Shown in pieces: positions 3,004-45,288 of a DNA stretch of 47,862 nucleotides; position 1 is the stretch's first letter; every line of letters begins with the position of its first letter. Origin of the DNA: Candidatus Harrisonbacteria bacterium (lineage in GTDB: Bacteria > Patescibacteriota > Minisyncoccia > UBA6257 > 02-FULL-45-10c); NCBI GenBank assembly GCA_016214655.1, contig JACROC010000007.1:80785-128646 (forward strand). Reading direction: 5' to 3'. The notes under the pieces were generated by a model that worked only from the letters and a program-made list of their open reading frames with translations, did no database searches and was not told the origin of the DNA. A program made the position numbers and the translations under genes.

Positions 3004-3356
3004 AAATTAGTAAAAATTTTATAAATTACATAAATAGGGACTGCGGCCCATAATATATATACAGACGCGGACAGAAAAATTATAACTGCATACACAATTA
3101 AACTGATTAAAATCCGCACAGTCCTAAAGGTAAAACCCCAAAGATAACCAATAGGGGTGTAATCTTGGTAAAGCGGCTGAAACCAATTTTTCATTGTAAT
3201 TCTCAACGCAAAATACCTATCCAATTTCTCCAAGATATTATAAGTCCAATGAACTATCCTTAAAAAACCATTAATATACCAATGCCCGAAAAAACCCAGA
3301 ATCCTCTTCCCGAGATGGGTAAAAATATAAACCAAAGAAACACTATTAATCTCCAT
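3000..3356 (-). CDS. Small hypothetical membrane protein
   Basis: 118-aa ORF whose stop overlaps the start of the downstream Clp-like gene by 4 nt (operon-like). C-terminal hydrophobic helices (ILISLIVYAVIIFLSASVYILWAAVPIYVIY). No family recognised. Confidence 0.45.
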   Translation of the reverse strand: MEINSVSLVYIFTHLGKRILGFFGHWYINGFLRIVHWTYNILEKLDRYFALRITMKNWFQPLYQDYTPIGYLWGFTFRTVRILISLIVYAVIIFLSASVYILWAAVPIYVIYKIFTNL

Positions 3357-16130: not shown

Positions 16131-16163
16131 CTAAACCCTATACCCTAAACCCTATACCCTAAC
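16131..16163. repeat. Tandem 14-mer CTAAACCCTATACC, 2.4 copies (CTA every 7 nt, five times)
   Basis: Perfect direct repeat read from the sequence, ending 1 nt before the rpsT ATG. It gives TAA in all three plus frames and TAG in all three minus frames. Confidence 0.9.
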
Positions 16164-16164
16164 A

Positions 16165-16425
16165 ATGATCACTCAATCAGCTAAAAAAGCTTACCGCCAA
16201 AACCTCAAAAGACGCGCAGTCAATCTTAAAAGGAAAGAAGCATTGAAAAAGATTTTAAAAAACTATAAAAAACTGGTTTCCGCCGGCAAATTAGATGAGG
16301 CCAAAAAAGAACTGCCAAGTGTTTATAAAATTCTAGATAAATCAGCTAAAGTAAACCTCCTCAAAAAGAACACTGCCTCGCGGCTTAAGTCTCGCTTAAC
16401 AAAGCTTCTAGTCACTAGTCACTAG
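16165..16425 (+). CDS. rpsT: 30S ribosomal protein S20
   Basis: 86 aa. SAKKAYRQNLKRRAVNLKRK... is a typical basic helical S20 sequence. Confidence 0.9.
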   Translation: MITQSAKKAYRQNLKRRAVNLKRKEALKKILKNYKKLVSAGKLDEAKKELPSVYKILDKSAKVNLLKKNTASRLKSRLTKLLVTSH

Positions 16426-16428
16426 TCG
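16408..16428. repeat. Heptamer array CTAGTCA-CTAGTCA-CTAGTCG at the rpsT/holA convergent junction
   Basis: Three consecutive 7-mers. The rpsT stop is the TAG at 16423-16425. The holA stop is the CTA at 16429-16431. TAG/CTA fall in all three frames on both strands. Confidence 0.9.
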
Positions 16429-17238
16429 CTAATTACTCATCACTAAATCTAAAAGGGCTTCATCATACTCCAGTTTTCCCGATTTAACTGCCGCGTCATA
16501 ATCCGCAACTTTTTCTTTCCAGCCTTTGTCAGCATAAGGAGAAACCGCCATAATATTAAAAATTACAGCCGCATCTTCGCTTCTGGATAAAAGTTCTTCT
16601 AATAAAGATAGGCGCTCGCTTTTTCTGGAGGAATTCCGAATCTGATTAATTATGAAAAAAATATTTACCGGCAACGAAGCGTCTAGGTGATCTTCTAAGA
16701 TTTTTAAACTAATTTTCTTTTCATCGAGCAAAGATAATTTATCCAATTCAGTTACCAAACCCCAACCATCATTCATAAAAGCCCCCAATAACAGATCTTT
16801 GGCCGCGCTATTAAAATTTAAATCCCTTGACTTTGCTTCCCGATCAAAAAACTCACCAAGCTCTGCACCAAATAAATTTTCAAATTCCTGATGCAATGCC
16901 GGTTTTTCCAATAAAAATTTAAATTCTTTAGTTGGTTTTTTGTCTTGGCTGATTACCAAAACCTGTTCTTTAACTTTTAAATTTTCTTTTAATAACTCTA
17001 TATATTCTTTTTGTGCAGTTTTTTCCAAATTACTGCCGCCTTTAACTATTCCCAATTTAAAATTGTCAAAAAGCGATCTGGCCTTAACGAAGTCTTTTAA
17101 TTTATCCAATCCGCCGTCATCTTCTAAATTGAAATGCTCAATGGAAAAGCCGGAATGTTTTTCCTTATATTCCAAAACAATTTCCTTTAATTTTTGCTGG
17201 CGCCGATAAGAATCGGGGCCATATAAAAAAATGATCAT
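16429..17238 (-). CDS. holA: DNA polymerase III delta subunit
   Basis: The track ORF 16429-17334 overlaps the fpg 3' end. The internal ATG at 17238 gives MIIFLYGPDSYRRQQK..., the typical HolA N-terminus, and lies 7 nt after the fpg stop. Confidence 0.75.
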   Translation of the reverse strand: MIIFLYGPDSYRRQQKLKEIVLEYKEKHSGFSIEHFNLEDDGGLDKLKDFVKARSLFDNFKLGIVKGGSNLEKTAQKEYIELLKENLKVKEQVLVISQDKKPTKEFKFLLEKPALHQEFENLFGAELGEFFDREAKSRDLNFNSAAKDLLLGAFMNDGWGLVTELDKLSLLDEKKISLKILEDHLDASLPVNIFFIINQIRNSSRKSERLSLLEELLSRSEDAAVIFNIMAVSPYADKGWKEKVADYDAAVKSGKLEYDEALLDLVMSN

Positions 17239-19387: not shown

Positions 19388-20842
19388 TTATTCCAATTCC
19401 CCCCAGTTTTTGCCGACTTTAACTATTATTTTAATAGGAACCTCCAGCTCATAAGCACTCTCCATAATCTTACGAATTAAACTAGTTGCCTCCTTCATTA
19501 TATCCTCGCTTATTTCGAACAACAATTCATCGTGAATGGTTAAAAGCATTCTGACTTTATCTTGCCATTTTCGCCTTTTTAATTCTTCAGCAACCCTAAC
19601 CATCGCTATTTTTATGATGTCCGCTGCCAAACCCTGCACCGGCATATTGATTGCCGCCCTTTCTGCTTCAGCCGCCTCACCGCGGAACATTGAAGTGGCC
19701 GACAAAAGCCAGCGCCGGCGTCTGTTAAGATTTGTTACATAACCCATAGTGCGCGCTTGCGATTTTACCTCCTCTTGCCACTCTTTAATTTTTTTAAAAT
19801 CATTAAAATATTCTTCAATAAATTTTTTAGCCTCAGAAAAACTTAGTCCGCTGGTTTTTGCAAAAGCATTTGCCCCCATTCCATAAACTACGCCGAAGTT
19901 TAAAGTTTTGGCCAAGCGACGCATCTCTGGTGTCACTTTTTCCAGTGAAACATTAAAAACACTTGCGGCCGTTAGTTTATGAATATCCTGATCGTTATTA
20001 AATGCCTTCATCATCTCTGGGTCGCCGGAAAGCGAAGCCAAAATCCTAAGTTCCATCTGCGAATAATCAAACGCAACTATCTGATATCCTTTTTCCGCAA
20101 CAAAAGCTTTTCTCAGTTCTTTTGCCCATTCACCCTCAGCCGGAATATTCTGCAAATTCGGATTTTGTGAACTCAAACGGCCAGTAGCAGTTCCAGTTTG
20201 GATATAAGTAGTGTGCACCCTGTTATTTTTGTCGGCCAGTTCTTGAAGCGGCCGGACATAGGTTGACTGCAGTTTAAACAATTCCCGATATTCCAGAATA
20301 TATTTAACGATCGGGTGGCGATCCCGGATAGTAAGCAAAGTTTCTACGTCTGTAGAAATAGCGCCTCCGCGGGTTTTTTTGACTCCCCTGATATCAATAT
20401 TTAATTTTTCAAAAAAAATTTTACCGAGCTGCTTTGGCGAATTAATGTTAAAAACTTCTCCGGCTTCCTTATAAATACTTTTGGCTAGACCCGATAGATT
20501 TTTCTCCAATTTCTTATCTAAATCTTTTAATTTCTTAACATTCAACTTTATGCCCAATATTTCCATATCTGCCAGCACTGCCAGCAGTGGTATTTCCACT
20601 TCATAAAAAAGCTTCTCCAATTTATATTCCTTCAATTTTTTAACGGCATAATTATACAATTCTTTATTAGTAGCGCCATCTTGGTGCAAATATCGGTTAC
20701 TTAAAAATTCCAGAGAATATTTTTCTTCGTCCGGATTAAGCATCCAAAAAGCGACGCCAAGATCAAAATATTCTGCAGGCAATTTCTTGCCGACCCTCCT
20801 CGGTTCTTTAAATTTTTCTTTGAGATTAAAGTCAATAAGCAT
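19388..20842 (-). CDS. polA: DNA polymerase I, polymerase domain only (no 5'-3' exonuclease, at most a vestigial 3'-5' exonuclease domain)
   Basis: 484 aa. Family-A motifs DYSQMELRILA (A), RRLAKTLNFGVVYG (B) and TIHDELLFE (C). Confidence 0.9.
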   Translation of the reverse strand: MLIDFNLKEKFKEPRRVGKKLPAEYFDLGVAFWMLNPDEEKYSLEFLSNRYLHQDGATNKELYNYAVKKLKEYKLEKLFYEVEIPLLAVLADMEILGIKLNVKKLKDLDKKLEKNLSGLAKSIYKEAGEVFNINSPKQLGKIFFEKLNIDIRGVKKTRGGAISTDVETLLTIRDRHPIVKYILEYRELFKLQSTYVRPLQELADKNNRVHTTYIQTGTATGRLSSQNPNLQNIPAEGEWAKELRKAFVAEKGYQIVAFDYSQMELRILASLSGDPEMMKAFNNDQDIHKLTAASVFNVSLEKVTPEMRRLAKTLNFGVVYGMGANAFAKTSGLSFSEAKKFIEEYFNDFKKIKEWQEEVKSQARTMGYVTNLNRRRRWLLSATSMFRGEAAEAERAAINMPVQGLAADIIKIAMVRVAEELKRRKWQDKVRMLLTIHDELLFEISEDIMKEATSLIRKIMESAYELEVPIKIIVKVGKNWGELE

Positions 20843-21685: not shown

Positions 21686-22576
21686 TTATAATCTTTCCAC
21701 TAAACTCTTGAAACCAAGTTCTTCAAAATATTTTTTAAGCGCTTCTCTGTCTAACGTCTCTTGTTTTAAGTCATCTAAAGTTATTTCTAAAGGCGCATCT
21801 CGTTTTATCATCGCAAGTTTTTTAGATAAAAATGCGCTCTCGCGTCCGGCTTCCAATTTTTTCCGCAGAACCTCTTTTGGAATCAAACCGACTTCTTCGT
21901 ATATTTTTTCTATTGATCCATATTCTTTAATCAAATCTGTAGCGCCTTTCGGGCCAATGCCAGTTACGCCAGGAATATTATCCGAGGCATCACCAATTAA
22001 TGCCTTATAATCTACCAGCTGCTCCGGCGTAAAACCATACTCCTGTAAAAATAGCGCCTTATCATATGTAATAGTTTTACTGACTCCGGTTTTTAAAAGC
22101 TCTACAAAAACTTTACCCCCATCAATCAATTGAAGATTATCTTTATCTCCGGAAAAAATGATAATTTTGAGCTCAAAATTATCACCCTGAGTGTGTCGAA
22201 GGGTTTCCGAATTCTTAAATTTCTCGGCCAAAGTGCCCACTATGTCATCCGCCTCTAATCCCACTTTCTCAACTACCTTAATTCCAAATTTTTCAAAAGT
22301 TTCATGCGCTTTAATGAGTTGTGAAACTAATTCGTTAGCGGTCGGAGGACGATGCGCTTTATAGTCTTTGTACATATCATCTCGAAATGTAGGTTCCGGC
22401 CGGTCAAATGCCGCTGCCACATAATCCGGGTTATGCTCGCGCAATAATTTCATTAAAATAGAAGAGAGTCCGTAAACCGCATTTATCGGTTCTCCTTTCG
22501 GCGTTGTCAGCGGCGGCAACGCATGAAACGAACGATGGATTAAAGAATTGGCGTCTATAAGAAGGAGTTTTTTCAT
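21686..22576 (-). CDS. Stand-alone 5'-3' exonuclease / flap endonuclease (Pol I N-terminal domain homologue)
   Basis: 296 aa. KKLLLIDANSLIHRSFHA, GLEADDIVGT, and the H3TH segment LIGDASDNIPGVTGIGPKGA. Confidence 0.9.
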   Translation of the reverse strand: MKKLLLIDANSLIHRSFHALPPLTTPKGEPINAVYGLSSILMKLLREHNPDYVAAAFDRPEPTFRDDMYKDYKAHRPPTANELVSQLIKAHETFEKFGIKVVEKVGLEADDIVGTLAEKFKNSETLRHTQGDNFELKIIIFSGDKDNLQLIDGGKVFVELLKTGVSKTITYDKALFLQEYGFTPEQLVDYKALIGDASDNIPGVTGIGPKGATDLIKEYGSIEKIYEEVGLIPKEVLRKKLEAGRESAFLSKKLAMIKRDAPLEITLDDLKQETLDREALKKYFEELGFKSLVERL

Positions 22577-22577
22577 A

Positions 22578-22765
22578 TTATTTTACTTCCAATATACCTA
22601 AATCGCGACAAATTTTTCTTACAATAAAATTATTAATCTCGCTGTGTCGTGGAACCGTTGATGTTCGCCGAGTTTTGGGATTAAAAAAACGCTATGCTTA
22701 GCGCCTTCTCGCAAAAGAAGGCATCTTTCTTTTTTGAGATGCCTTAACAGATCGCTTCTTTTCAT
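22578..22765 (-). pseudogene. hicA: hicA toxin gene disrupted by a frameshift at a T7 homopolymer
   Basis: From ATG 22765 the frame gives MKRSDLLRHLKKERCLLLREGAKHSVF, then runs out of family. With one extra T in the T7 run (plus-strand A7 at 22683-22689) it continues FNPKTRRTSTVPRHSEINNFIVRKICRDLGILEVK*, a textbook HicA C-terminus. The start forms an ATGA overlap with the hicB stop. Confidence 0.65.
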
Positions 22766-23007
22766 TTTACCGAAACTGCAATAAGTTCACGAGTGACTCG
22801 TTTATTTTCTTTTAACGTTAAAAGCCGATTAGTTTCAAGAACCAATTTAAGCGCCTCTCGAAGATTTTCTTTAGCCTCTTTGGGTGTCTCTCCTTGTGTA
22901 TTCACCCCTGGTATTTCTTCCACCCAGGCCGAATACCATTTACCTGTTTTCTTATAAACCGCAGTAAACTGTTTTTTCATATTTTCAATATACCTCTTTT
23001 TAATCAA
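22762..23007 (-). CDS. hicB: HicB-family antitoxin (UPF0150-type)
   Basis: 81 aa. The segment YSAWVEEIPGVNTQGETPKEAKENLREALKLVLE is typical of the HicB N-terminal domain. The true start may be Met10. Confidence 0.7.
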   Translation of the reverse strand: MIKKRYIENMKKQFTAVYKKTGKWYSAWVEEIPGVNTQGETPKEAKENLREALKLVLETNRLLTLKENKRVTRELIAVSVK

Positions 23008-24089: not shown

Positions 24090-24107
24090 AGATTAATAGT
24101 AAACTTA

Positions 24108-24135
24108 CTAGTCGCCAGTCGCTAGTCGCTAGTCA
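24108..24135. repeat. Heptamer array CTAGTCG-CCAGTCG-CTAGTCG-CTAGTCA
   Basis: Four consecutive 7-mers of the same unit as at 16408-16428. The tsaE stop is the CTA at 24122-24124. Confidence 0.9.
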
Positions 24136-24586
24136 CTGTGATAATGCGTTCTTTCTCGCTTTTACCATGCTCAAACTCTATCCAAATCGTATCTTTTGGT
24201 AAAATCTTTTTTACTCTCTCCGGCCATTCAATAAGCAAAATATTATGCGGATCGCTGATAATTTTTTTGAATCCTAAATCTAAAAGCTCCTTTGGTTTTT
24301 GAATTCTATACAAATCAAAATGGTACGCATGGTGAAAATGTATAAAACCCCTCTTAATCGGAGTGGAAATTTCATATTTCCGGACAATTAAAAAGGTGGG
24401 GCTTGTTACGCGATGTCTTACGCCCAATGCCCCCATAAACCCCTGTGTAAACGTAGTTTTACCAGTGCCAAGATCACCGCGGAGAGCAATCACCTTTGTC
24501 AATTTAAGGTCTTGCGATGACCTTAAAATTTTTTTGGCAAATCGTACCGCCAATTTTTGAGTTTGTAACTTAGATTTACTTAACAT
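24122..24586 (-). CDS. tsaE: tRNA threonylcarbamoyladenosine biosynthesis ATPase TsaE
   Basis: 154 aa. LRGDLGTGKTTFTQG P-loop and SPTFLIV motif. Confidence 0.85.
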   Translation of the reverse strand: MLSKSKLQTQKLAVRFAKKILRSSQDLKLTKVIALRGDLGTGKTTFTQGFMGALGVRHRVTSPTFLIVRKYEISTPIKRGFIHFHHAYHFDLYRIQKPKELLDLGFKKIISDPHNILLIEWPERVKKILPKDTIWIEFEHGKSEKERIITVTSD

Positions 24587-27067: not shown

Positions 27068-27111
27068 ACTTATAACCCTAATTAGATCTTTTTTGTTCTA
27101 TTTGGGAAGAT

Positions 27112-27268
27112 AAAAAACTTTGTTCTGTGGGCGGGAATTGTCTCTAGATGGATGACTTGGCTTAGGCGGGGTCACTCCTCAGAGTAATTCTATCCTTTTC
27201 TAAAATTTATTTTAGGAAAGTTCCACTTTTCCCTTGCTCGGGAGATTGCCCACAGAACAAAGTTTTTT
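27112..27268 (+). ncRNA. Candidate structured small RNA (alternative reading: MITE-like inverted-repeat element)
   Basis: 27112-27132 (AAAAAACTTTGTTCTGTGGGC) is perfectly complementary to 27248-27268 (21/21). An internal 11-bp hairpin lies at 27195-27220. T-runs follow. A consensus promoter lies about 45 nt upstream. Both flanking genes are on the minus strand. Confidence 0.4.
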
Positions 27269-27299
27269 ATTATTTTTTAATAAGTCCAAATAGGATTTA

Positions 27300-34622: not shown

Positions 34623-34657
34623 TTTAGTATTTATATATTTAGTTGTTGTTATAGTGT

Positions 34658-34809
34658 TGTGGATAGTGTGGATAAATAGAAAAACTACTCCTGTTTTTAA
34701 TTATTTCAAAAAGAATATTTTGTTATTAATTTAGTATTGGTTGTGGATGGATTTTGATAACAAAATATATTTTTGGAATTAATACATCTTTATTAACTTA
34801 TAATCCACA
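34658..34809. promoter_or_regulatory. DnaA-box cluster / candidate oriC segment in the dnaA-dnaN intergenic region
   Basis: Abutting boxes TGTGGATAG (34658-34666, 1 mismatch) and TGTGGATAA (34667-34675, perfect complement of TTATCCACA). Also TGTGGATGG (34742-34750, 2 mismatches) and TAATCCACA (34801-34809, 1 mismatch). AT-rich tracts lie between them. Confidence 0.6.
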
Positions 34810-34823
34810 GACTACCTGATAAT

Positions 34824-36398: not shown

Positions 36399-36457
36399 CG
36401 TGGCAATTTGCATTTTTAGGCAAAAAGTTGGGAAATACAGTATAAACTTCCAATTTT

Positions 36458-36478
36458 TAATTACTAATTTCTAAAAAA
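36458..36478. repeat. Heptamer array TAATTAC-TAATTTC-TAAAAAA (left bracket of the rpmH promoter)
   Basis: TAA at 36458, 36465 and 36472 (period 7). Confidence 0.7.
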
Positions 36479-36485
36479 GTTCATC

Positions 36486-36514
36486 TTGCAAGGCTATTAA
36501 AAGTCGATTATACT
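36486..36514 (+). promoter_or_regulatory. Putative rpmH operon promoter
   Basis: TTGCAA (36486-36491), 17-nt spacer, TATACT (36509-36514), about 45 nt upstream of the rpmH ATG. Confidence 0.45.
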
Positions 36515-36520
36515 GATATA

Positions 36521-36548
36521 ATTAGAAATTAGATATTAGTCATTAGTA
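36521..36548. repeat. Heptamer array ATTAGAA-ATTAGAT-ATTAGTC-ATTAGTA (right bracket of the rpmH promoter)
   Basis: ATTAG at 36521, 36528, 36535 and 36542 (period 7). It is in inverted orientation relative to the 36458-36478 array. Confidence 0.85.
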
Positions 36549-36559
36549 ATTTTTGCAAT

Positions 36560-36694
36560 ATGTCTCAAACATATCAACCCAAAAAACGGAAAAGGGCAAG
36601 AACGCACGGATTTTTGGTCCGGAGCAGAACTCCTGGTGGGAGGCGGGTTTTAAGAGAAAGAAGGCGGAAAGGAAGGCACCGATTGTCGGTTTAA
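36560..36694 (+). CDS. rpmH: 50S ribosomal protein L34
   Basis: Below the ORF-track cut-off. Hand translation: [44 protein letters not shown] (44 aa). Canonical L34, in the canonical position upstream of rnpA. Confidence 0.95.
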
Positions 36695-36791
36695 ATCCCA
36701 AACTTTAATTTCTAAATACTAAATAATCTTAAAATTTCAATTCCTAAAATCCAAAACTTTTTAAGTTTCGGGTTTTAAATATTGGAATTTG

Positions 36792-36819
36792 TTTAGGATT
36801 TAGTGCTTAGTGATTAGAA
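36792..36819. repeat. Heptamer array TTTAGGA-TTTAGTG-CTTAGTG-ATTAGAA upstream of rnpA
   Basis: TTAG every 7 nt, four times. The 23-mer ATTGGAATTTGTTTAGGATTTAG (36781-36803) recurs with one mismatch at 44643-44665. Confidence 0.85.
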
Positions 36820-36830
36820 TTTTTTTAACT

Positions 36831-38299: not shown

Positions 38300-38302
38300 C
38301 GC

Positions 38303-38338
38303 GATACTAATATACGAATGCATACTAATGATACAAAT
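38303..38338. repeat. Left arm of the imperfect inverted repeat bracketing the GxxExxY gene
   Basis: GATACTAATATACGAATGCATACTAATGATACAAAT matches the reverse complement of 38719-38754 at 30 of 36 positions (hand alignment). It contains the gene's ATG. Confidence 0.8.
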
Positions 38339-38716
38339 GGGAAATTAATTTATCCCGAGTTGTCTTATTTTTTATCTGGTATCTGTTTTGATGTTCATAA
38401 TGAGTTGGGGAGATATGGCCGCGAAAAACAATATGGGGATTTGATTGAAAAGAAATTGCAAAATATAAATCTTCCTTATAAAAGAGAATTTAGTATAGGA
38501 AAAACTGGCAATGTAGTTGATTTTGTTATAGAGGATAAAATTATTTTAGAATTAAAAACTAAACCCTTGATAGTTAAAGAAGATTATTATCAAACACAAA
38601 GATACTTGCAATCTTCTAAAATAAGGCTCGCTTTGCTAATAAATTTCAGAAATAGATATTTAAAGCCTACTAGAGTTGTAAGAATAGATACCGATGTGAG
38701 GAATAAATTTTTCTAA
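38318..38716 (+). CDS. GxxExxY-family protein (PD-(D/E)XK nuclease-like fold)
   Basis: 132 aa. [22 protein letters not shown] is a typical family N-terminus, and [15 protein letters not shown] is a D...E-x-K-type motif. Confidence 0.75.
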
Positions 38717-38718
38717 TT

Positions 38719-38754
38719 ATTAGTATAATTAGTATTGATTAGTATATTGGTATC
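38719..38754. repeat. Right arm of the inverted repeat bracketing the GxxExxY gene
   Basis: ATTAGTATAATTAGTATTGATTAGTATATTGGTATC. See the left arm at 38303-38338. Confidence 0.8.
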
Positions 38755-38767
38755 GATTCTAGTCTAC

Positions 38768-39864: not shown

Positions 39865-40725
39865 CTATTTTTTTATTACCGGTTGGCAGCCGCCCAGCAC
39901 CGCATCTTCTTGCCCAGGCGGGCAGATGCAGTTGCCATCTTTTAATGTTTTTGGAAGGGGACAATTAGTTTCTTTGGGTTTATTTGTGGGCGGTGTGGTT
40001 ACTGCCGGGGGAGGAACATTTTGTAGAGTTATAAATAACTCCGGATTATTTGCTCCGGGATTTATTATATTGAGGAATCCGGGATCAATAGTGTATAAAA
40101 TTGTTGCGGCGCCTAGAAGCAGGATTAATCCATAAATTGCGCTTCTGATTTGTTCTTTAGCTTCGTCGATACTGGTAAAACTGCCGGCTGCCAGTATATA
40201 TTGTAGAGCGCCAAAGGTTATGGACCCAAAAGCAAGTAGTCCGACGATCATTAATCCGAATTGATATATACGGACTATATATCTGCCCGGCGTAGCTCCT
40301 TCTCCGCCGGCGATCTTTGGACAATCCCCCCCAAATATCGGCGAGCAGGGAATGTCATATTTTACCTCGTATGTTTTAACTCCTTCTTTTATGTCACCAA
40401 GAGTTCCGAATATACCCAAACCATTTACCACGTCTTCATAGGCTTTTGCTGAGGCCTCATAAGCATCCCCGACTCTTTTGGCATTTTTGAAAACCTCTTC
40501 ATATTCTCTGGTTCCTTTTTTAATGCATTTTTCAATACGCGTAACAGTACCCGCCTCTTCTTTAACTGCCGGTTCAAATTTAAATAATATGGAATCCTCC
40601 TCGCATTTTCCATTGATCGGGCTTACTATGTTTGCGGCAAAACTTATTAAAAAGGAATTTAGTAAGATAAGGATGGATGATAAAATTGCCCAGCTCATTT
40701 TATTTTTTAACTTATTACTATACAT
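39865..40725 (-). CDS. T4SS pilin-like (VirB2/TrbC-analogous, CPR-type) protein with large N-terminal extension and Cys-rich tail
   Basis: 286 aa. Signal peptide and a Cys pair (DIPCSPIFGGDC). Then two hydrophobic helices separated by an AKEQIRSAIYG linker (IYQFGLMIVGLLAFGSITFGALQYILAAG / LILLLGAATILYTIDP). C-terminal Pro/Thr spacer and a 4-Cys knot. Confidence 0.55.
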   Translation of the reverse strand: MYSNKLKNKMSWAILSSILILLNSFLISFAANIVSPINGKCEEDSILFKFEPAVKEEAGTVTRIEKCIKKGTREYEEVFKNAKRVGDAYEASAKAYEDVVNGLGIFGTLGDIKEGVKTYEVKYDIPCSPIFGGDCPKIAGGEGATPGRYIVRIYQFGLMIVGLLAFGSITFGALQYILAAGSFTSIDEAKEQIRSAIYGLILLLGAATILYTIDPGFLNIINPGANNPELFITLQNVPPPAVTTPPTNKPKETNCPLPKTLKDGNCICPPGQEDAVLGGCQPVIKK

Positions 40726-41807: not shown

Positions 41808-43520
41808 TTACCCTTTTTGCTGTTCTAGAATTTGTTCCGGCCGAGTAGTTACGATTTTATCTTCCAAATATGAGGCAATGATTTGAATGGACACGTGATT
41901 TAATCCTGCAAAGAACAATCCTTGGCCTACCCTTGCCTCCAAGAGCAAGCTTTTTTCGCCCTCGGTCAAATTGAAGGTCTTGGCAACTAAGTCCACCATT
42001 GCCGGAGATTGTTTTAAAAGCAGCTGAAGCGAGGAATTGGTGATAATTGGCCGGCCGTAAGGAGAGCGGAGGAAATCTTCCACGTCTTGGGTAATGGTAG
42101 TGACGCCAAGATAATACTTTCTGCATCTTTTAACCAGGCCGAATAAGAAAGACGCGCCGTCTTCGTACTTCATTAACACCCAAGCCTCATCAATGATTAA
42201 AACCCTTCTTTTAAGCTGTGCTCTGATTAAGCTCCAAATGAAGTTTAGCACTATATACATGGCAATCGGCCGAAGTGAGTCCTCTAAGTCTCGGATAGAA
42301 AAGACAATCAGTCGATTTTTGATGTCTACGTTGGATGGTTGGTTGGTGAATCCGGCGTAGCTGCCTTGGGTAAATTTATAAAGCCGTTCGGCTATGCCGC
42401 GTCCGCCTTCCATATTTTCCAGAACTTTTTGCAGTTCTTCCAAGAGTGGCGGAGTGGCTGTGGAGAAATCTTTTCCGGGAATGATATCATGGGCGGCATA
42501 AGTCTCACTCAGGGCTCGGTCCAGAACAGCATCTTCTTCCGGAGTAATCTGACCAACCATGATTTTTAAAAGTCCGGATAAATTTACTATGTGCGATCTA
42601 AGTACATCGGCCGGGTCTTCATTTGGAGGTATAATGGGAATTTCAAAAGGATTGATGTGGTGGTCTGAAGTCAGAGAAATTTTGAAAAAACTTCCCCCAA
42701 CCGCCGAAGCCAGATTTTGATATTCATTTTCCGGGTCAATGATTAAGACATCAACCCCGAACATTAAAAGCCTTAAAATTTCCAGTTTGCTGGCATAAGA
42801 TTTTCCGCTGCCGGATTTGGCAAAAATTACCATGTTGGCATTTTCCAAAGAGAAGCGGTCAAAAATGACGAGGGTGTTGTTGTGCTGGTTGACCCCGTAC
42901 ATTATGCCGGTATTAGAGGTCAGTTCAGTTGAGGTGAATGGGAAGATTGAGGAAAATGGCCCGGAGTTTAGCGGTGTGTGAATAAGCAACCTATCTAAAC
43001 CGAGCGGCAAAGTTGAATTGAACCCGTCTAATTGCTGGAATAATGCCGGTTTTATATAGATGAGCCGGCTTTCCAGCAAAACTTCGATTTTTCCTTCCAA
43101 TTTACGTAATTCTTCCAGGGTATCAGCGTAAATAGTCATATAAACACTGACATTGAATAAATTTTCTCTTGCTTGCTGGAGTGAGTCCCGGAGTGATTCG
43201 ATATCCTGAAAGGCAGTTTCTAGAATCGGGTCGCGCACCATTCCCTTTTGCTGTTTTTCAATTATCTGAGATTCTATCTGAGCAGCTTTTTTTCTTAGTT
43301 TTTTAAGCGCGACGGGAGTAGCCACGGGGTGGGCAAAAATTGAAATATCTATGAGTTCCGGCATATCAATTATTCCGGAAAACCAGCCGGTAGCAAGATA
43401 TCTTGGATAGCTAAAAATAAATAAAGTTTTGGTGAACTTATCTCCGACTTTCAGATAATTGGAATCAATCTCAATTCCCGGCGGGGCAATTATGTTTACT
43501 ATATTTTTTTTGTCATCCAT
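41808..43520 (-). CDS. virB4: VirB4/TraC/TrbE-family T4SS ATPase (middle and C-terminal ATPase portion)
   Basis: 570 aa. YPRYLATGWFSGIIDMPELIDISIF (VirB4 N-terminal-region pattern), Walker A FAKSGSGKSY, Walker B VLIIDEAW, and GVTTITQD. Confidence 0.85.
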   Translation of the reverse strand: MDDKKNIVNIIAPPGIEIDSNYLKVGDKFTKTLFIFSYPRYLATGWFSGIIDMPELIDISIFAHPVATPVALKKLRKKAAQIESQIIEKQQKGMVRDPILETAFQDIESLRDSLQQARENLFNVSVYMTIYADTLEELRKLEGKIEVLLESRLIYIKPALFQQLDGFNSTLPLGLDRLLIHTPLNSGPFSSIFPFTSTELTSNTGIMYGVNQHNNTLVIFDRFSLENANMVIFAKSGSGKSYASKLEILRLLMFGVDVLIIDPENEYQNLASAVGGSFFKISLTSDHHINPFEIPIIPPNEDPADVLRSHIVNLSGLLKIMVGQITPEEDAVLDRALSETYAAHDIIPGKDFSTATPPLLEELQKVLENMEGGRGIAERLYKFTQGSYAGFTNQPSNVDIKNRLIVFSIRDLEDSLRPIAMYIVLNFIWSLIRAQLKRRVLIIDEAWVLMKYEDGASFLFGLVKRCRKYYLGVTTITQDVEDFLRSPYGRPIITNSSLQLLLKQSPAMVDLVAKTFNLTEGEKSLLLEARVGQGLFFAGLNHVSIQIIASYLEDKIVTTRPEQILEQQKG

Positions 43521-43542: not shown

Positions 43543-44208
43543 TTATTTATTAACTTGCGTTTCCAAGTCTACTTTTTTGGCTACGGTGGACGGATTATAT
43601 AGATTATAGAAAAGCTCTATTAATTCGTCATTTTCCAGGGAAACGGCGCGGAGACCGATTTGATTTAAGCCATCTATAATTTGTGATACACGCGCATTTA
43701 ATTGCTGCAGGCTCTCTTCAAATTTCTCATCTTTTTTTTCCTGGGCGGTTTTTTTGGATTTTCCCCAACTAAATAGAGCATCGGCGATATTTAATCCGGC
43801 ACCTGGAACTGCGATCGGGTCGTACGGGACAACCACGAAAAATCTTTTTTGCATAATGGCATTTTCTCTTACCACCGTTTTGACAAATTCCCGGTATTCA
43901 AGAATTTGATTTTTTAAAAGGCTGTTTTCTTCCTGAATTTCGCGCTCTTCGAGAGTTTTAATATAATCATCAATATTAAGCTTTCTGGAATGGATAAAGA
44001 ATTGAACGGTAAAATCCAGAGAATTCAAGAATCCCTGGAAAGCCTGAGTAATCATTTCTTGCTCTTCCGTGGATTTTAGAGAGAAATTGGTTCCGGAAAC
44101 CAGAATAATTTTTCTTAGACCCCCGCCCTTCAATTTGATTGTATCGTTTTCTACGGATTCAATTTCTATAAACTGTTGTGTGGGTAAAGACCCTTCTCTA
44201 TTCGGCAT
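43543..44208 (-). CDS. VirB4 N-terminal-domain-like protein (separate ORF)
   Basis: 221 aa. FIEIESVENDTIKLKGGGLRKIILVSGTNFSLKSTEEQEMITQAFQGFLNSLDFTVQFFIHSRKLNID resembles the extreme N-terminus of Gram-positive VirB4 homologues (Tn916 Orf16/TcpF type). 221+570 aa is about the size of a full-length VirB4. Confidence 0.5.
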   Translation of the reverse strand: MPNREGSLPTQQFIEIESVENDTIKLKGGGLRKIILVSGTNFSLKSTEEQEMITQAFQGFLNSLDFTVQFFIHSRKLNIDDYIKTLEEREIQEENSLLKNQILEYREFVKTVVRENAIMQKRFFVVVPYDPIAVPGAGLNIADALFSWGKSKKTAQEKKDEKFEESLQQLNARVSQIIDGLNQIGLRAVSLENDELIELFYNLYNPSTVAKKVDLETQVNK

Positions 44209-44220
44209 ATACTTTATTAT

Positions 44221-44254
44221 AAACCCTAAATTCTAATATCTAAACTCTAAACAA
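44221..44254. repeat. Left arm (CTAA heptamer array) of the inverted repeat bracketing the four-helix-bundle gene
   Basis: AAACCCTAAATTCTAATATCTAAACTCTAAACAA has CTAA at 44226, 44233, 44240 and 44247. It matches the reverse complement of 44651-44684 at 29 of 34 positions. Confidence 0.85.
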
Positions 44255-44284
44255 TTATAAAATTCCAATTATCAAATTTAGAAA

Positions 44285-44644
44285 CTATTTTGACCCTTCT
44301 ACTATCGACCCGAAAATTTTCGTAAGCTCTCCAGATTCTTTGATTAAATATTCTCTTTCTGATTCAGATTCCGTTTTGGGGGCGCTAAGTTTTAACCACA
44401 AGCAGCTCTCTTTCGATTCTTTTCGGCATATTTTTATTCTTATAACGAAATCTTTTTTACTAAGCGCCTCGTTAGCTTCTATATAATTAGCGGCAACCGA
44501 ACCCGAGGACCGAACTAATTGTTTTCCGTTCTCTATGTTGGTAATTATTTTAGGTAAACTATTGACGTACCCATTTACCCTTTTCGCGAAATTAAAAGTT
44601 CTTTCTTCTAGATCATATTTTTTTGTATTTGGAGATTGGTCCAT
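44285..44644 (-). CDS. Four-helix-bundle protein (TIGR02436 / 23S rRNA intervening-sequence protein family)
   Basis: 119 aa. FNFAKRVNGYVNSLPK...QLVRSSGSVAANYIEANEA.SKKDF..KI.ICRKESKES..WL is the typical family pattern. Confidence 0.8.
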   Translation of the reverse strand: MDQSPNTKKYDLEERTFNFAKRVNGYVNSLPKIITNIENGKQLVRSSGSVAANYIEANEALSKKDFVIRIKICRKESKESCLWLKLSAPKTESESEREYLIKESGELTKIFGSIVEGSK

Positions 44645-44650
44645 TGGAGT

Positions 44651-44684
44651 TTGTTTAGGATTTAGAAATTAGGATTTAGAGTTT
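44651..44684. repeat. Right arm (TTAG heptamer array) of the inverted repeat bracketing the four-helix-bundle gene
   Basis: TTGTTTAGGATTTAGAAATTAGGATTTAGAGTTT has TTAG at 44655, 44662, 44669 and 44676. Confidence 0.85.
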
Positions 44685-45196
44685 TAACGGTAATCTACTC
44701 TCCGGGCCACTTCTCTTTCCCCGGTTATTTTTCTCATCATTTCAAAGCGTTCCTTGCTGCTTACGGCCCTGTCCAGGATGGCTGGTTCTATGGACTTTTC
44801 TCTTTTAGGAAGCGGTTTGCGGCTGGTTTTAAGCTGTTCCCATAGATCATTCAATCTAGACTTGGCGGGAGAAATTCCGGATTCCGGCAATTTGATTTGC
44901 GGAATTTTTTCAGATGCAATCTTACTCTGCCAGAGATAAAAATGCGGCTTAAGGTAAAAATTAAGAGCTGAAAAAGCAATGGTGGTAAATGATTGGCCGT
45001 TAATTTTAATAAATGCAAAAGAGGCGGCAATTATTCCCAGGAAAAGAGTGATAATCAGCCAAAGTATAAATTGCAAAAAGAAAAATAAAGCGAAACTTAT
45101 GCCTCCGGCCACGGCCAGAAATAAAAATTGCTTGATGGTCAGCGGACCAACAATTTTGTCTTCGGTTTCTATAAATTGTGGAACTTGAAAATTCAT
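44684..45196 (-). CDS. PrgI-family (VirB3-like) membrane protein
   Basis: 170 aa. The N-terminus VPQFIETEDKIVGPLTIKQFLFLAVAGGISFALFFF followed by a second TM helix is the PrgI-family pattern. Confidence 0.7.
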   Translation of the reverse strand: MNFQVPQFIETEDKIVGPLTIKQFLFLAVAGGISFALFFFLQFILWLIITLFLGIIAASFAFIKINGQSFTTIAFSALNFYLKPHFYLWQSKIASEKIPQIKLPESGISPAKSRLNDLWEQLKTSRKPLPKREKSIEPAILDRAVSSKERFEMMRKITGEREVARRVDYR

Positions 45197-45211: not shown

Positions 45212-45288
45212 CGATACGAAACTACAAATTGATGCGAATCTACAAATGATTTATTCGTTGATTCGGATGTATTCGTAGTTTTGGATCG
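45212..45288. repeat. Long imperfect hairpin (cargo-less inverted repeat) between the PrgI-like and proline-rich genes
   Basis: Hand pairing of 45212-45249 with 45251-45288 gives 29 Watson-Crick plus 2 G-U pairs out of 38 positions. ATACGAA/TTCGTAT-type units are as in the GxxExxY flanks. Confidence 0.7.

Follow-up and report, generated by a model that had tools for sequence, protein, structure and literature searches.

We find that a gene of the four-helix-bundle (4HB) type, lodged inside a type IV secretion system (T4SS)-like operon of a Candidatus Harrisonbacteria bacterium, is the cargo of a portable cassette of ~470 nt. The cassette lies in a 47,862-nt stretch of contig JACROC010000007.1 (the window, to whose first letter all positions refer), between a PrgI-family gene and a VirB4 N-terminal-like (VirB4-N) gene, and it consists of a promoterless S23p/PF05635 gene held between terminal inverted repeats of ~32 bp. 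Five heptamer units make up each repeat, which reads (AAAYYCN)n in the 5' arm and the complement of this array in the 3' arm. The reading of the whole that we favour, with a probability of about 0.6, is that of a mobile cassette resembling the intervening sequences (IVSs) of 23S rRNA, which would be transcribed by read-through, looped out by its arms and cut by RNase III at the arm duplex.

Anatomy of the cassette and its arm helix

An inverted-repeat search returned two arms of 34 nt each, at 44221-44254 and 44651-44684, which are complementary at 29 of 34 positions (85%) and enclose a gap of 396 nt; the inverted-repeat score of these flanks was reached by none of 200 flank shuffles. On the plus strand, the left arm carries CTAA four times at a spacing of 7 (44226-44250) and the right arm TTAG four times (44655-44679), which is the arrangement that an initial annotation of this DNA had described. 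Across the whole window, runs of CTAA, TTAG or CTAG make up six period-7 arrays and one of period 12, with none at periods 4–6 or 8–11.

The cassette is encoded on the minus strand and is described here in the coding direction. Its 5' arm (44651..44684), AAACTCTAAATCCTAATTTCTAAATCCTAAACAA, comprises five AA-anchored heptamer units with four CTAA cores, begins at the final base of the PrgI stop codon and finishes 6 nt ahead of the ATG of the 4HB gene; the consensus of this arm is common to 70 non-redundant sister cassettes of the same arm and 4HB design, which were obtained from 80 further metagenome loci. The cargo open reading frame (ORF) follows at 44285..44644 and encodes 119 amino acids belonging to the S23p or '23S rRNA intervening sequence protein' family of four-helix bundles (PF05635, TIGR02436). 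The spacer between its stop codon and the 3' arm (44255..44284) is built of degenerate T-rich heptamer-like units, TTTCTAAATTTGATAATTGGAATTTTATAA, and a similar TTTGRA-rich stretch was seen by eye at the equivalent position in most sister cassettes. The 3' arm (44221..44254), TTGTTTAGAGTTTAGATATTAGAATTTAGGGTTT, has four TTAG cores with period 7 and adjoins the TATAAT box of the next gene. What remains (44209..44220, same strand) is host spacer kept from the empty site, namely the TATAAT box at 44216-44221 and then 7 nt to the VirB4-N ATG, such that the cassette fills precisely the interval from the PrgI stop codon to this box. The promoter-like sequence of VirB4-N matches at 10 of 12 positions, its -35-like TTTAGA being contributed by the cassette arm.

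The family assignment of the 119-aa product, and its position between the PrgI-like and VirB4-N genes, agree with the initial annotation: the protein matches PF05635 with an E value of 3.8e-10 (40.4 bits, cut-off 33.8) and TIGR02436 with 58.2 bits (cut-off 24). Its AlphaFold model (pLDDT 93) contains four helices and a disordered N-terminus of 12 residues. The best Foldseek matches of the model were 2RLD (30% identity, TM score 0.68-0.76) and 2GSC, both of the S23p group, followed by the Avd structures 8UB7 and 4DWL with TM scores of about 0.6-0.7. The protein is basic, with an isoelectric point (pI) of 9.1 against a family median of 9.3. Among sister 4HB copies (pairs 75-83% identical) the ratio of nonsynonymous to synonymous substitution rates (dN/dS) was 0.04-0.12; the protein is thus under purifying selection, and we infer that it is made and functional.

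To place the gene in its host operon, we used 80 syntenic loci of Paceibacterota/Parcubacteria (numbered from L001 onward), which had been fetched with the VirB4 ATPase as anchor and whose best matches came from Candidatus Harrisonbacteria. In most of them PrgI is directly followed by VirB4-N. The two closest relatives, L001 and L002 (VirB4 85% and 83% identical), have an empty site with a spacer of 18-45 nt, and in L003 (82%) the PrgI|VirB4-N spacer is masked and unreadable. The empty spacers of relatives end in a TATAAT-like box 5-9 nt ahead of the ATG. An intact PF05635-like gene was found in 17 of the 80 loci, in 16 cases co-oriented with the operon, and pseudogenes were present besides in L008 and L070. 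These intact genes occupy three different spacers (p311|PrgI, PrgI|B4N and B4N|B4C, where B4N and B4C denote the two parts of VirB4), apart from one that lies elsewhere on the other strand, and their identity to the window protein is no higher than 34-42%, which includes those at the same site in L004 (42%) and L044 (34%). The empty sites of the nearest relatives support the proposal, already made in the initial annotation, that the 4HB gene is an insertion in the PrgI|VirB4-N spacer.

The arms are predicted to form a helix around the whole ORF, as had been suggested. The arm duplex has a computed energy of -32.2 kcal/mol, compared with -12.0±2.9 kcal/mol in 1000 shuffles (z -6.9, best shuffle -23.3). 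In the fold of a 482-nt transcript the 34 arm pairs have a mean pair probability of 0.88, and the arms are paired in both the minimum free energy (MFE) and the centroid structures of the cassette region. The z-score of the whole-region fold is only -1.65 because the interior of the ORF is unstructured, and the arm-duplex test was therefore used instead. Together, these folds support a stable stem of ~32-34 bp enclosing the 4HB ORF.

Sister cassettes, derivatives and distribution

A database search returned hundreds of proteins from Levybacteria, Daviesbacteria, Liptonbacteria and other Patescibacteria that share 65-74% identity with the window protein. Their genes stand in contexts such as a laminin-G surface protein|GIY-YIG pair, an unknown gene|purple-acid-phosphatase-like pair and a DsbD|cupredoxin pair. 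These close homologues outside the T4SS carry the arms and the inner motif of the window cassette (CTAAACAAA..ATG upstream and TTGTTTAG downstream); more fully, their flanks read AAATYCTAA...CTAAACAAAYNCAA|ATG on the upstream side and, downstream, a short T-rich spacer followed by TTGTTTAGRRTTTAG...TTAG. Of those sister cassettes that have an upstream gene, 56 out of 66 are co-oriented with it, and this gene ends a median of 45 nt ahead of the 4HB ATG, so that the arm fills the gap. One sister cassette even uses the TAA of its first heptamer as the stop codon of the upstream gene. Another (L154, at ~1501) lies directly downstream of three tRNA genes (112-1221), which shows that mRNA operons are not the only home of these cassettes. 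We consider the portability of the unit, which had been one of two options in the initial annotation, to be well supported by this recurrence of arms and ORF in unrelated contexts of other lineages of the Candidate Phyla Radiation (CPR).

Two candidate settings and vehicles were rejected. Cassettes inside CPR rRNA genes were found neither in the window nor in the 20 sister loci with odd flanks, and no relatives turned up in viral contigs with the profile patterns used, which speaks against a phage vector. As the initial annotation had stated, no rRNA gene is near the window cassette: Rfam finds a single tRNA in the window, and the flanks of the cassette are protein-coding. No direct repeat outside the arms was common to 28 aligned cassettes (columns 1-6 and 75-80), and the exact ends of the element are uncertain.

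The sister cassettes also allowed us to follow the helix through changes of sequence. The second base of the CNAA core differs among cassettes, is mostly uniform within an arm and is complementary in the other arm; among 57 scorable cassettes the core-base pairs were T:A in 29, G:C in 10, C:G in 5 and A:T in 4 (48 complementary). Covariation was scored on 28 anchored arm pairs in an ungapped alignment of 80 columns with an imposed structure of 38 pairs, and amounted to 0.227 against 0.146±0.012 in shuffled alignments (0/500), falling to 0.13 or below when the partner was slid by 1-3 columns. Cells changed on both sides numbered 103 compared with 68±7. The four N positions are occupied by UA, GC and CG pairs with few unpaired cells, and in the middle heptamers the three variable bases are often mismatched. 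The six outermost of the 38 pairs are mostly unpaired, hence the stem length of ~32 bp. The number of invariant AA (or TT) dinucleotides per arm is exactly five in this alignment, and they recur with period 7. Arm types are scattered over the protein tree, which means that switches between them happened several times. The heptamers of the T4SS loci are different again (GAATTAT, AGAGCTT, AAATAGT, ACGAGTT, AAGTTTA, CCACTAG), yet they too are inverted around the 4HB gene. A flanking inverted-repeat score of at least 16 was reached by 8 of 18 4HB genes and by 7 of 874 other genes, most of the latter seven being operon genes between two hairpins. The covariation in relatives supports the stem as a conserved feature.

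The variable core also bears on the second option of the initial annotation, translational insulation. The window copy does place TAA or TAG in every frame of both strands, but such stops are missing from sister cassettes whose cores are CGAA/TTCG, CCAA/TTGG or CAAA/TTTG. An all-frame stop-codon insulator was therefore rejected as a general function, and the stops of the window copy are incidental.

Several kinds of derivative accompany the intact cassettes. ORF-less hairpins made of the same heptamers as the cassettes, with loops of 5-100 nt, occur in neighbouring spacers of loci L057, L078, L062, L063, L042 and L054, and the 4HB pseudogenes of L008 and L070 lie within well-kept arms. The window has its own ORF-less hairpin in the rpmH-rnpA spacer (plus strand, ~36704..36822, wider range 36695-36830), with an MFE of -33.7 kcal/mol, a z-score of -6.0 and no equal among 200 shuffles. 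It aligns end to end with sister 4HB cassettes from which the ORF has been deleted, at a score of 68 against a null maximum of 37, and on this alignment it is an ORF-less derivative of the 4HB cassette family. The initial annotation had picked up neither this hairpin, nor the window's other heptamer arrays, nor the second cassette type described next. Recombination of resident hairpins with incoming cassettes would explain the repeated use of the same spacers, although this is speculation.

A second cargo was also found. In L069 the arms surround a GxxExxY protein (TIGR04256, 63.5 bits) instead of a 4HB protein, and GxxExxY cassettes occupy PrgI|B4N or B4N|B4C spacers in L023 (twice), L025, L026 and L072. 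The arms of GxxExxY cassettes are inverted repeats of ATACNAAT units and give no period-7 signal. A cassette of this type is present on the plus strand of the window (38302..38755), at the end of the rpmH-rnpA-yidC-jag operon, with arms of 37 nt (38302-38338 and 38719-38755, 84% complementary) made of the same unit. Its ORF (38318-38716, plus strand) encodes a GxxExxY/PDDEXK_3 protein of 132 aa (PF13366, E value 5.6e-18), and sister copies with the same arms lie in the T4SS spacers of L023 and L026.

The association between PF05635 genes and period-7 arrays is not confined to CPR bacteria. Plasmids searched with tblastn yielded PF05635 genes from Nostoc, Anabaena, Dolichospermum, Planktothrix, Gloeocapsa and Pseudanabaena, from Chlorohelix (Chloroflexota), and from Bernardetia and Chondrinema (Bacteroidota). 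Period-7 arrays flank all 12 plasmid genes examined from cyanobacteria, Chloroflexota and Bacteroidota, with a mean best 28-nt self-match of 0.82 at period 7 compared with 0.45-0.54 at periods 5, 6, 8, 9 and 10. The flanks are mostly inverted, as in (TAATTCG)n with 33/33, (AATTCAA)n with 31/31 and (GTCGGAG)n with 38/44 matching positions. Again the genes lie between operon genes, such as an RND adaptor and a permease or KAS III and an M20 hydrolase, and in several defence operons (L171-L182), where the sites were cas2|cas1 (twice), upstream of cas1, DISARM DrmD|MmeI, DUF1156|Swt1-HEPN (in two phyla) and helicase|N6-methylase. In both cas2|cas1 cases the PF05635 gene is antisense to the cas genes.

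Host operon, solo arrays and other features of the window

The operon that received the cassette runs on the minus strand. Upstream lies the PrgI-family (VirB3-like) gene (44684..45196; PF12666, E value 1.3e-10), whose stop codon touches the 5' arm and whose synteny extends over the 80 loci. The downstream gene (43543..44208) is called VirB4 N-terminal-like on the basis of a weak, sub-threshold match to TraC_F_IV (TraC N-terminal) and of the conserved PrgI-B4N-B4C synteny, VirB4 being split here. It is followed by a VirB4/TraG P-loop ATPase gene (41808-43520) and a T4SS pilin-like gene (39865-40725), both assigned with Pfam. A Shine-Dalgarno-like motif precedes 4 of the 49 window genes, while a TATAAT-like box lies within ~20 nt of the start in eleven; the scarcity of the former and the boxes near starts, as in the empty PrgI|VirB4-N spacers, hint at leaderless or near-leaderless mRNAs. 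Two tandem repeats of period 18 that stand side by side, GATACGAAACTACAAATT and GATGTATTCGTAGATTCG, were noted at 45213-45286 in the spacer that precedes the PrgI gene; they are partly complementary to each other. GC-rich palindromes of one family (GTCATTGCGAG...CTCGCAATGAC; inverted-repeat score 33) flank the VirB4 ATPase gene of L010 at 758-857, 2601-2706 and 3148-3236, and L082 has similar units (GTCATTC...GAATGAC) close to a small GIY-YIG gene.

In the window and the 80 loci taken together, we counted 82 arrays of period 7, as opposed to 11, 6, 6 and 1 at periods 6, 8, 9 and 10. Intergenic positions account for 55 of the 82, though only ~6% of the DNA is intergenic, and 40 of 76 lie within 2 kb upstream of a VirB4 ATPase gene. 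Some of the window's arrays stand alone. One on the plus strand (CTAAACC/CTATACC, 16131..16165; period 7/14 by Tandem Repeats Finder, fold energy -1.2 kcal/mol) ends directly before the small ORF that starts at 16166, 3 nt ahead of its ATG, which we take by eye to be rpsT. Another (CTAGTCA, 16408-16432) is at the 3' end of the same ORF, and a third (CTAGTCG, 24105-24139) lies between tsaE and a glycoside-hydrolase-like gene; none of the three is self-complementary, and the first does not fold alone. Just upstream of rpmH, inverted CTAA/TTAG heptamer arrays (36428-36568, arms of 47 nt, 70% complementary) surround a segment of 47 nt with a promoter-like TTGCAA-17-TATACT. The fold of this region is no better than that of shuffles (z -1.2).

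Further features of the window were recorded in passing. The 333-nt spacer that precedes a PilB/T2SSE ATPase gene contains a perfect 23-nt inverted repeat (27110-27132 and 27248-27270, its halves separated by 115 nt), and the region 27110-27270 has no Rfam match at the gathering threshold. The dnaN-dnaA spacer (34623-34823) contains several DnaA-box-like motifs of the type TGTGGATA together with a 30-nt inverted repeat, and is probably the replication origin region. DNA polymerase I is seemingly split into a polymerase-domain gene (19388-20842) and a 5'-3' exonuclease gene (21686-22576), separated by an M23 peptidase gene on the opposite strand. The adjoining 427 nt (22577-23003) contain no ORF of at least 90 aa.

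Mode of action, rival explanations and related elements

According to the reading that we favour, read-through from the host operon would transcribe the cassette, and its arms would pair in the operon RNA and loop out the whole insertion. The co-orientation of 56 of 66 sister cassettes with a closely preceding gene fits such a reliance on host transcription. The PrgI stop and the VirB4-N start would then return to about their distance at the empty site, such that the insertion would be nearly silent for the host. The long duplex with its perfect cores could serve as a substrate of RNase III; as in the IVSs of Coxiella and Leptospira, its cuts would set the cassette RNA free and leave the cistrons on either side apart. 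The 4HB protein might, for example, bind the repeats or help the element to spread and be maintained. Looping-out and RNase III processing are plausible in view of the rRNA homologues and of the geometry of the arms.

A number of our results weigh against this scheme. The downstream VirB4-N gene appears to have its own TATAAT beside its ATG and may therefore not need read-through, which weakens the argument that looping-out restores coupling. No target-site duplication or recombinase that would explain movement was found at the cassette ends or among the cargo domains. Mismatches in the arms, read on the sense strand, carry no signature of an RNA strand, in that G:U pairs are not in excess over A:C (32 vs 38, and 51 vs 46 in a second count); the helix could therefore be selected, or merely generated, at the DNA level. 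An extended stem hiding the 4HB start codon was rejected, given that the spacer downstream of the ORF pairs only weakly and inconsistently with the ORF's 5' end (better than 95% of shuffles in 10 of 34 cassettes) and that the ATG is covered in 11 of the 34, with no conserved pairing among them. Finally, the core bases of the two arms disagree in 9 of the 57 scorable cassettes, and no second arm can be recognised in 13 of the 70.

Some of these points would be expected if the cassette were an element of DNA only, its arms being terminal inverted repeats for a recombinase or transposase acting in trans, in the style of miniature inverted-repeat transposable elements (MITEs) or REP/RAYT, or forming single-stranded DNA hairpins or cruciforms, with RNA pairing as a by-product. 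The cassette clearly moves between genomes and sites, it has ORF-less derivatives as MITEs do, the G:U bias is absent, and the heptamers of both arms change in concert, which suggests homogenisation at the DNA level. Such an element would not, however, account for the strong bias towards the sense orientation of host genes or for arms that adjoin stop and start codons, and processing at the RNA level has been demonstrated for the homologous rRNA elements. The cargo, a helical bundle of 119 aa or, alternatively, a GxxExxY/PD-(D/E)XK-like protein, showed no transposase domain either, and no target duplication was seen at the ends of the 28 aligned cassettes. We regard this alternative as unlikely, but as one to be taken seriously. 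Far less credible, to the point that we rejected it, is an ancestral accessory gene of the T4SS with fortuitous low-complexity flanks. The presence of an intact, mostly co-oriented 4HB gene near PrgI in 17 of 80 loci, with two more as pseudogenes, would fit such a gene; against it stand the three different spacers, the low identity of the T4SS copies when compared with the 65-74% homologues outside any T4SS, the empty sites of the nearest relatives and the covarying arms.

The constancy of period 7 might instead reflect the protein. A pentameric ring of the 4HB protein could bind the five heptamers of an arm, much as the TRAP ring does on triplet repeats, for autoregulation, for protection from RNase III or as a mark for spread, with period 7 as the footprint of one subunit. 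This idea draws on the fact that period 7 goes with PF05635 cargo in five phyla despite different heptamer sequences, whereas GxxExxY cassettes have inverted arms without it, and on the five invariant dinucleotides per arm. The family is also basic, Xcc0516, a homologue of solved structure, forms a homopentameric toroid (PMC4990558), and the homologue Avd is part of the solved reverse-transcriptase ribonucleoprotein of diversity-generating retroelements (8UB7). All of this is purely correlative, though, and arms persist in ORF-less hairpins and in pseudogene copies, where no protein is encoded in cis. Arm type follows the protein tree only loosely, and the unit number varies (2-3 plus 1 in Coxiella); we therefore hold ring binding to be improbable. 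Quite improbable, too, is that the hairpins are generic intergenic punctuation, i.e. host devices that stabilise transcripts, terminate weakly or act in coupling, with the 4HB gene as a secondary passenger. The concentration of arrays upstream of VirB4-C in many lineages, and several operons with a hairpin in every spacer, speak for this view, as do the 7-bp repeat hairpins between genes of filamentous cyanobacteria (short tandemly repeated repetitive heptanucleotides, STRRs), for which stabilisation of transcripts or translational coupling has been suggested (PMC2670836). Yet arms, ORF and spacer travel jointly to unrelated loci, the closest relatives have no hairpin at all at the PrgI|VirB4-N site, and in alignment the window's ORF-less hairpin looks like an ORF-bearing cassette that has undergone a deletion.

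A mobile IVS-like cassette processed as RNA thus stays our preferred account, and it may be extended tentatively. PF05635 genes, ORF-bearing rRNA IVSs and STRR-type hairpins could belong to one ancient, phylum-spanning class of mobile 'self-looping' cassettes able to settle in any transcribed spacer or RNA helix, in which a pentameric ring would read the five heptamers of its own arm by a TRAP-like code, with base N of CNAA/TTN'G as a co-evolving specificity base. We think this synthesis unlikely to hold in full. The locus and its relatives nevertheless suggest that three separate literatures, on the purpose of the ORFs in rRNA IVSs, on the common 'four helix bundle protein' genes and on intergenic heptanucleotide hairpins, concern one kind of element. 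They also provide a defined anatomy (an inverted arm of five heptamers, a covarying specificity base, a promoterless cargo, and ORF-less or decayed derivatives), which makes these questions testable by simple assays. Moreover, the cassettes split operons, here of a T4SS and elsewhere of cas1/cas2, restriction-modification and efflux genes, and should be recognised in annotation, particularly as their arms can be mistaken for regulatory sites.

Among known systems, the ORF-bearing 23S IVSs of Coxiella burnetii and Leptospira are closest, and the parallel drawn in the initial annotation proved real, reaching down to the heptamers. The Coxiella burnetii IVS is an element of 428 nt in helix 45 of the 23S rRNA, with a terminal stem of 28 bp around an S23p ORF, and has, ahead of the start codon, 'three tandem heptameric repeats (GACAGAT)' and another, degenerate one, their number varying by strain; its stem is cut by RNase III, and horizontal acquisition has been proposed (PMC4990558). 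IVSs and cassettes thus hold the same protein family in the loop, have ORF-enclosing terminal inverted repeats of about 28-34 bp and tandem heptamers just upstream of the start codon, and share a sporadic distribution, evidence of horizontal transfer and decay of the ORF in some copies (PMC4990558). They differ in that the window cassette lies between protein-coding cistrons and not in an rRNA gene, in that window-type ORFs are under purifying selection while that of Coxiella is regarded as unexpressed, and in that RNase III excision has been shown for the IVS and is a prediction for the window cassette. Older suggestions in the literature see in IVSs what is left of mobile elements, with an ORF that once served mobility.

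The Avd protein of diversity-generating retroelements has the four-helix-bundle fold and the basic charge in common with the window protein, as had been pointed out for the fold, while in sequence and structure the latter is nearer to 2RLD and 2GSC. Avd adjoins a reverse transcriptase and template/variable repeats, none of which lie near 44285-44644, and no reverse transcriptase match was found among the window ORFs of at least 90 aa, all of which were scanned with Pfam.

STRRs resemble the cassette arms as tandem 7-bp intergenic units able to form hairpins between co-transcribed genes (PMC2670836), and arrays of just this kind stand on the flanks of the PF05635 genes examined from cyanobacteria. 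STRRs have been described as a class of cyanobacterial repeats, whereas the arrays of the window are paired, inverted, travel with an ORF and occur in CPR bacteria. In our literature searches we found no work linking PF05635 genes, STRR-type arrays and non-rRNA locations, nor any that connects STRRs to a cargo gene or to IVSs.

More distant parallels exist as well. Correia/NEMIS elements of Neisseria and other MITE-like repeats are small, have terminal inverted repeats, are inserted beside genes and co-transcribed with them, and occur as dispersed ORF-less copies; Correia hairpins are cut by RNase III, and Correia elements have a TA target duplication. Unlike the window cassette, Correia elements are not known to contain an ORF or to have heptamer arrays as arms. 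In the early operon of phage T7, short and fixed intercistronic hairpins are RNase III processing sites, and they share with the cassette their position between cistrons of a polycistronic transcript; we know of no T7 site that is mobile or has a gene in its loop. The element of the window is most aptly classed with the IVSs, as an S23p cassette that has heptamer arms and lives in mRNA operons, and its links to STRR-type hairpins are clear.

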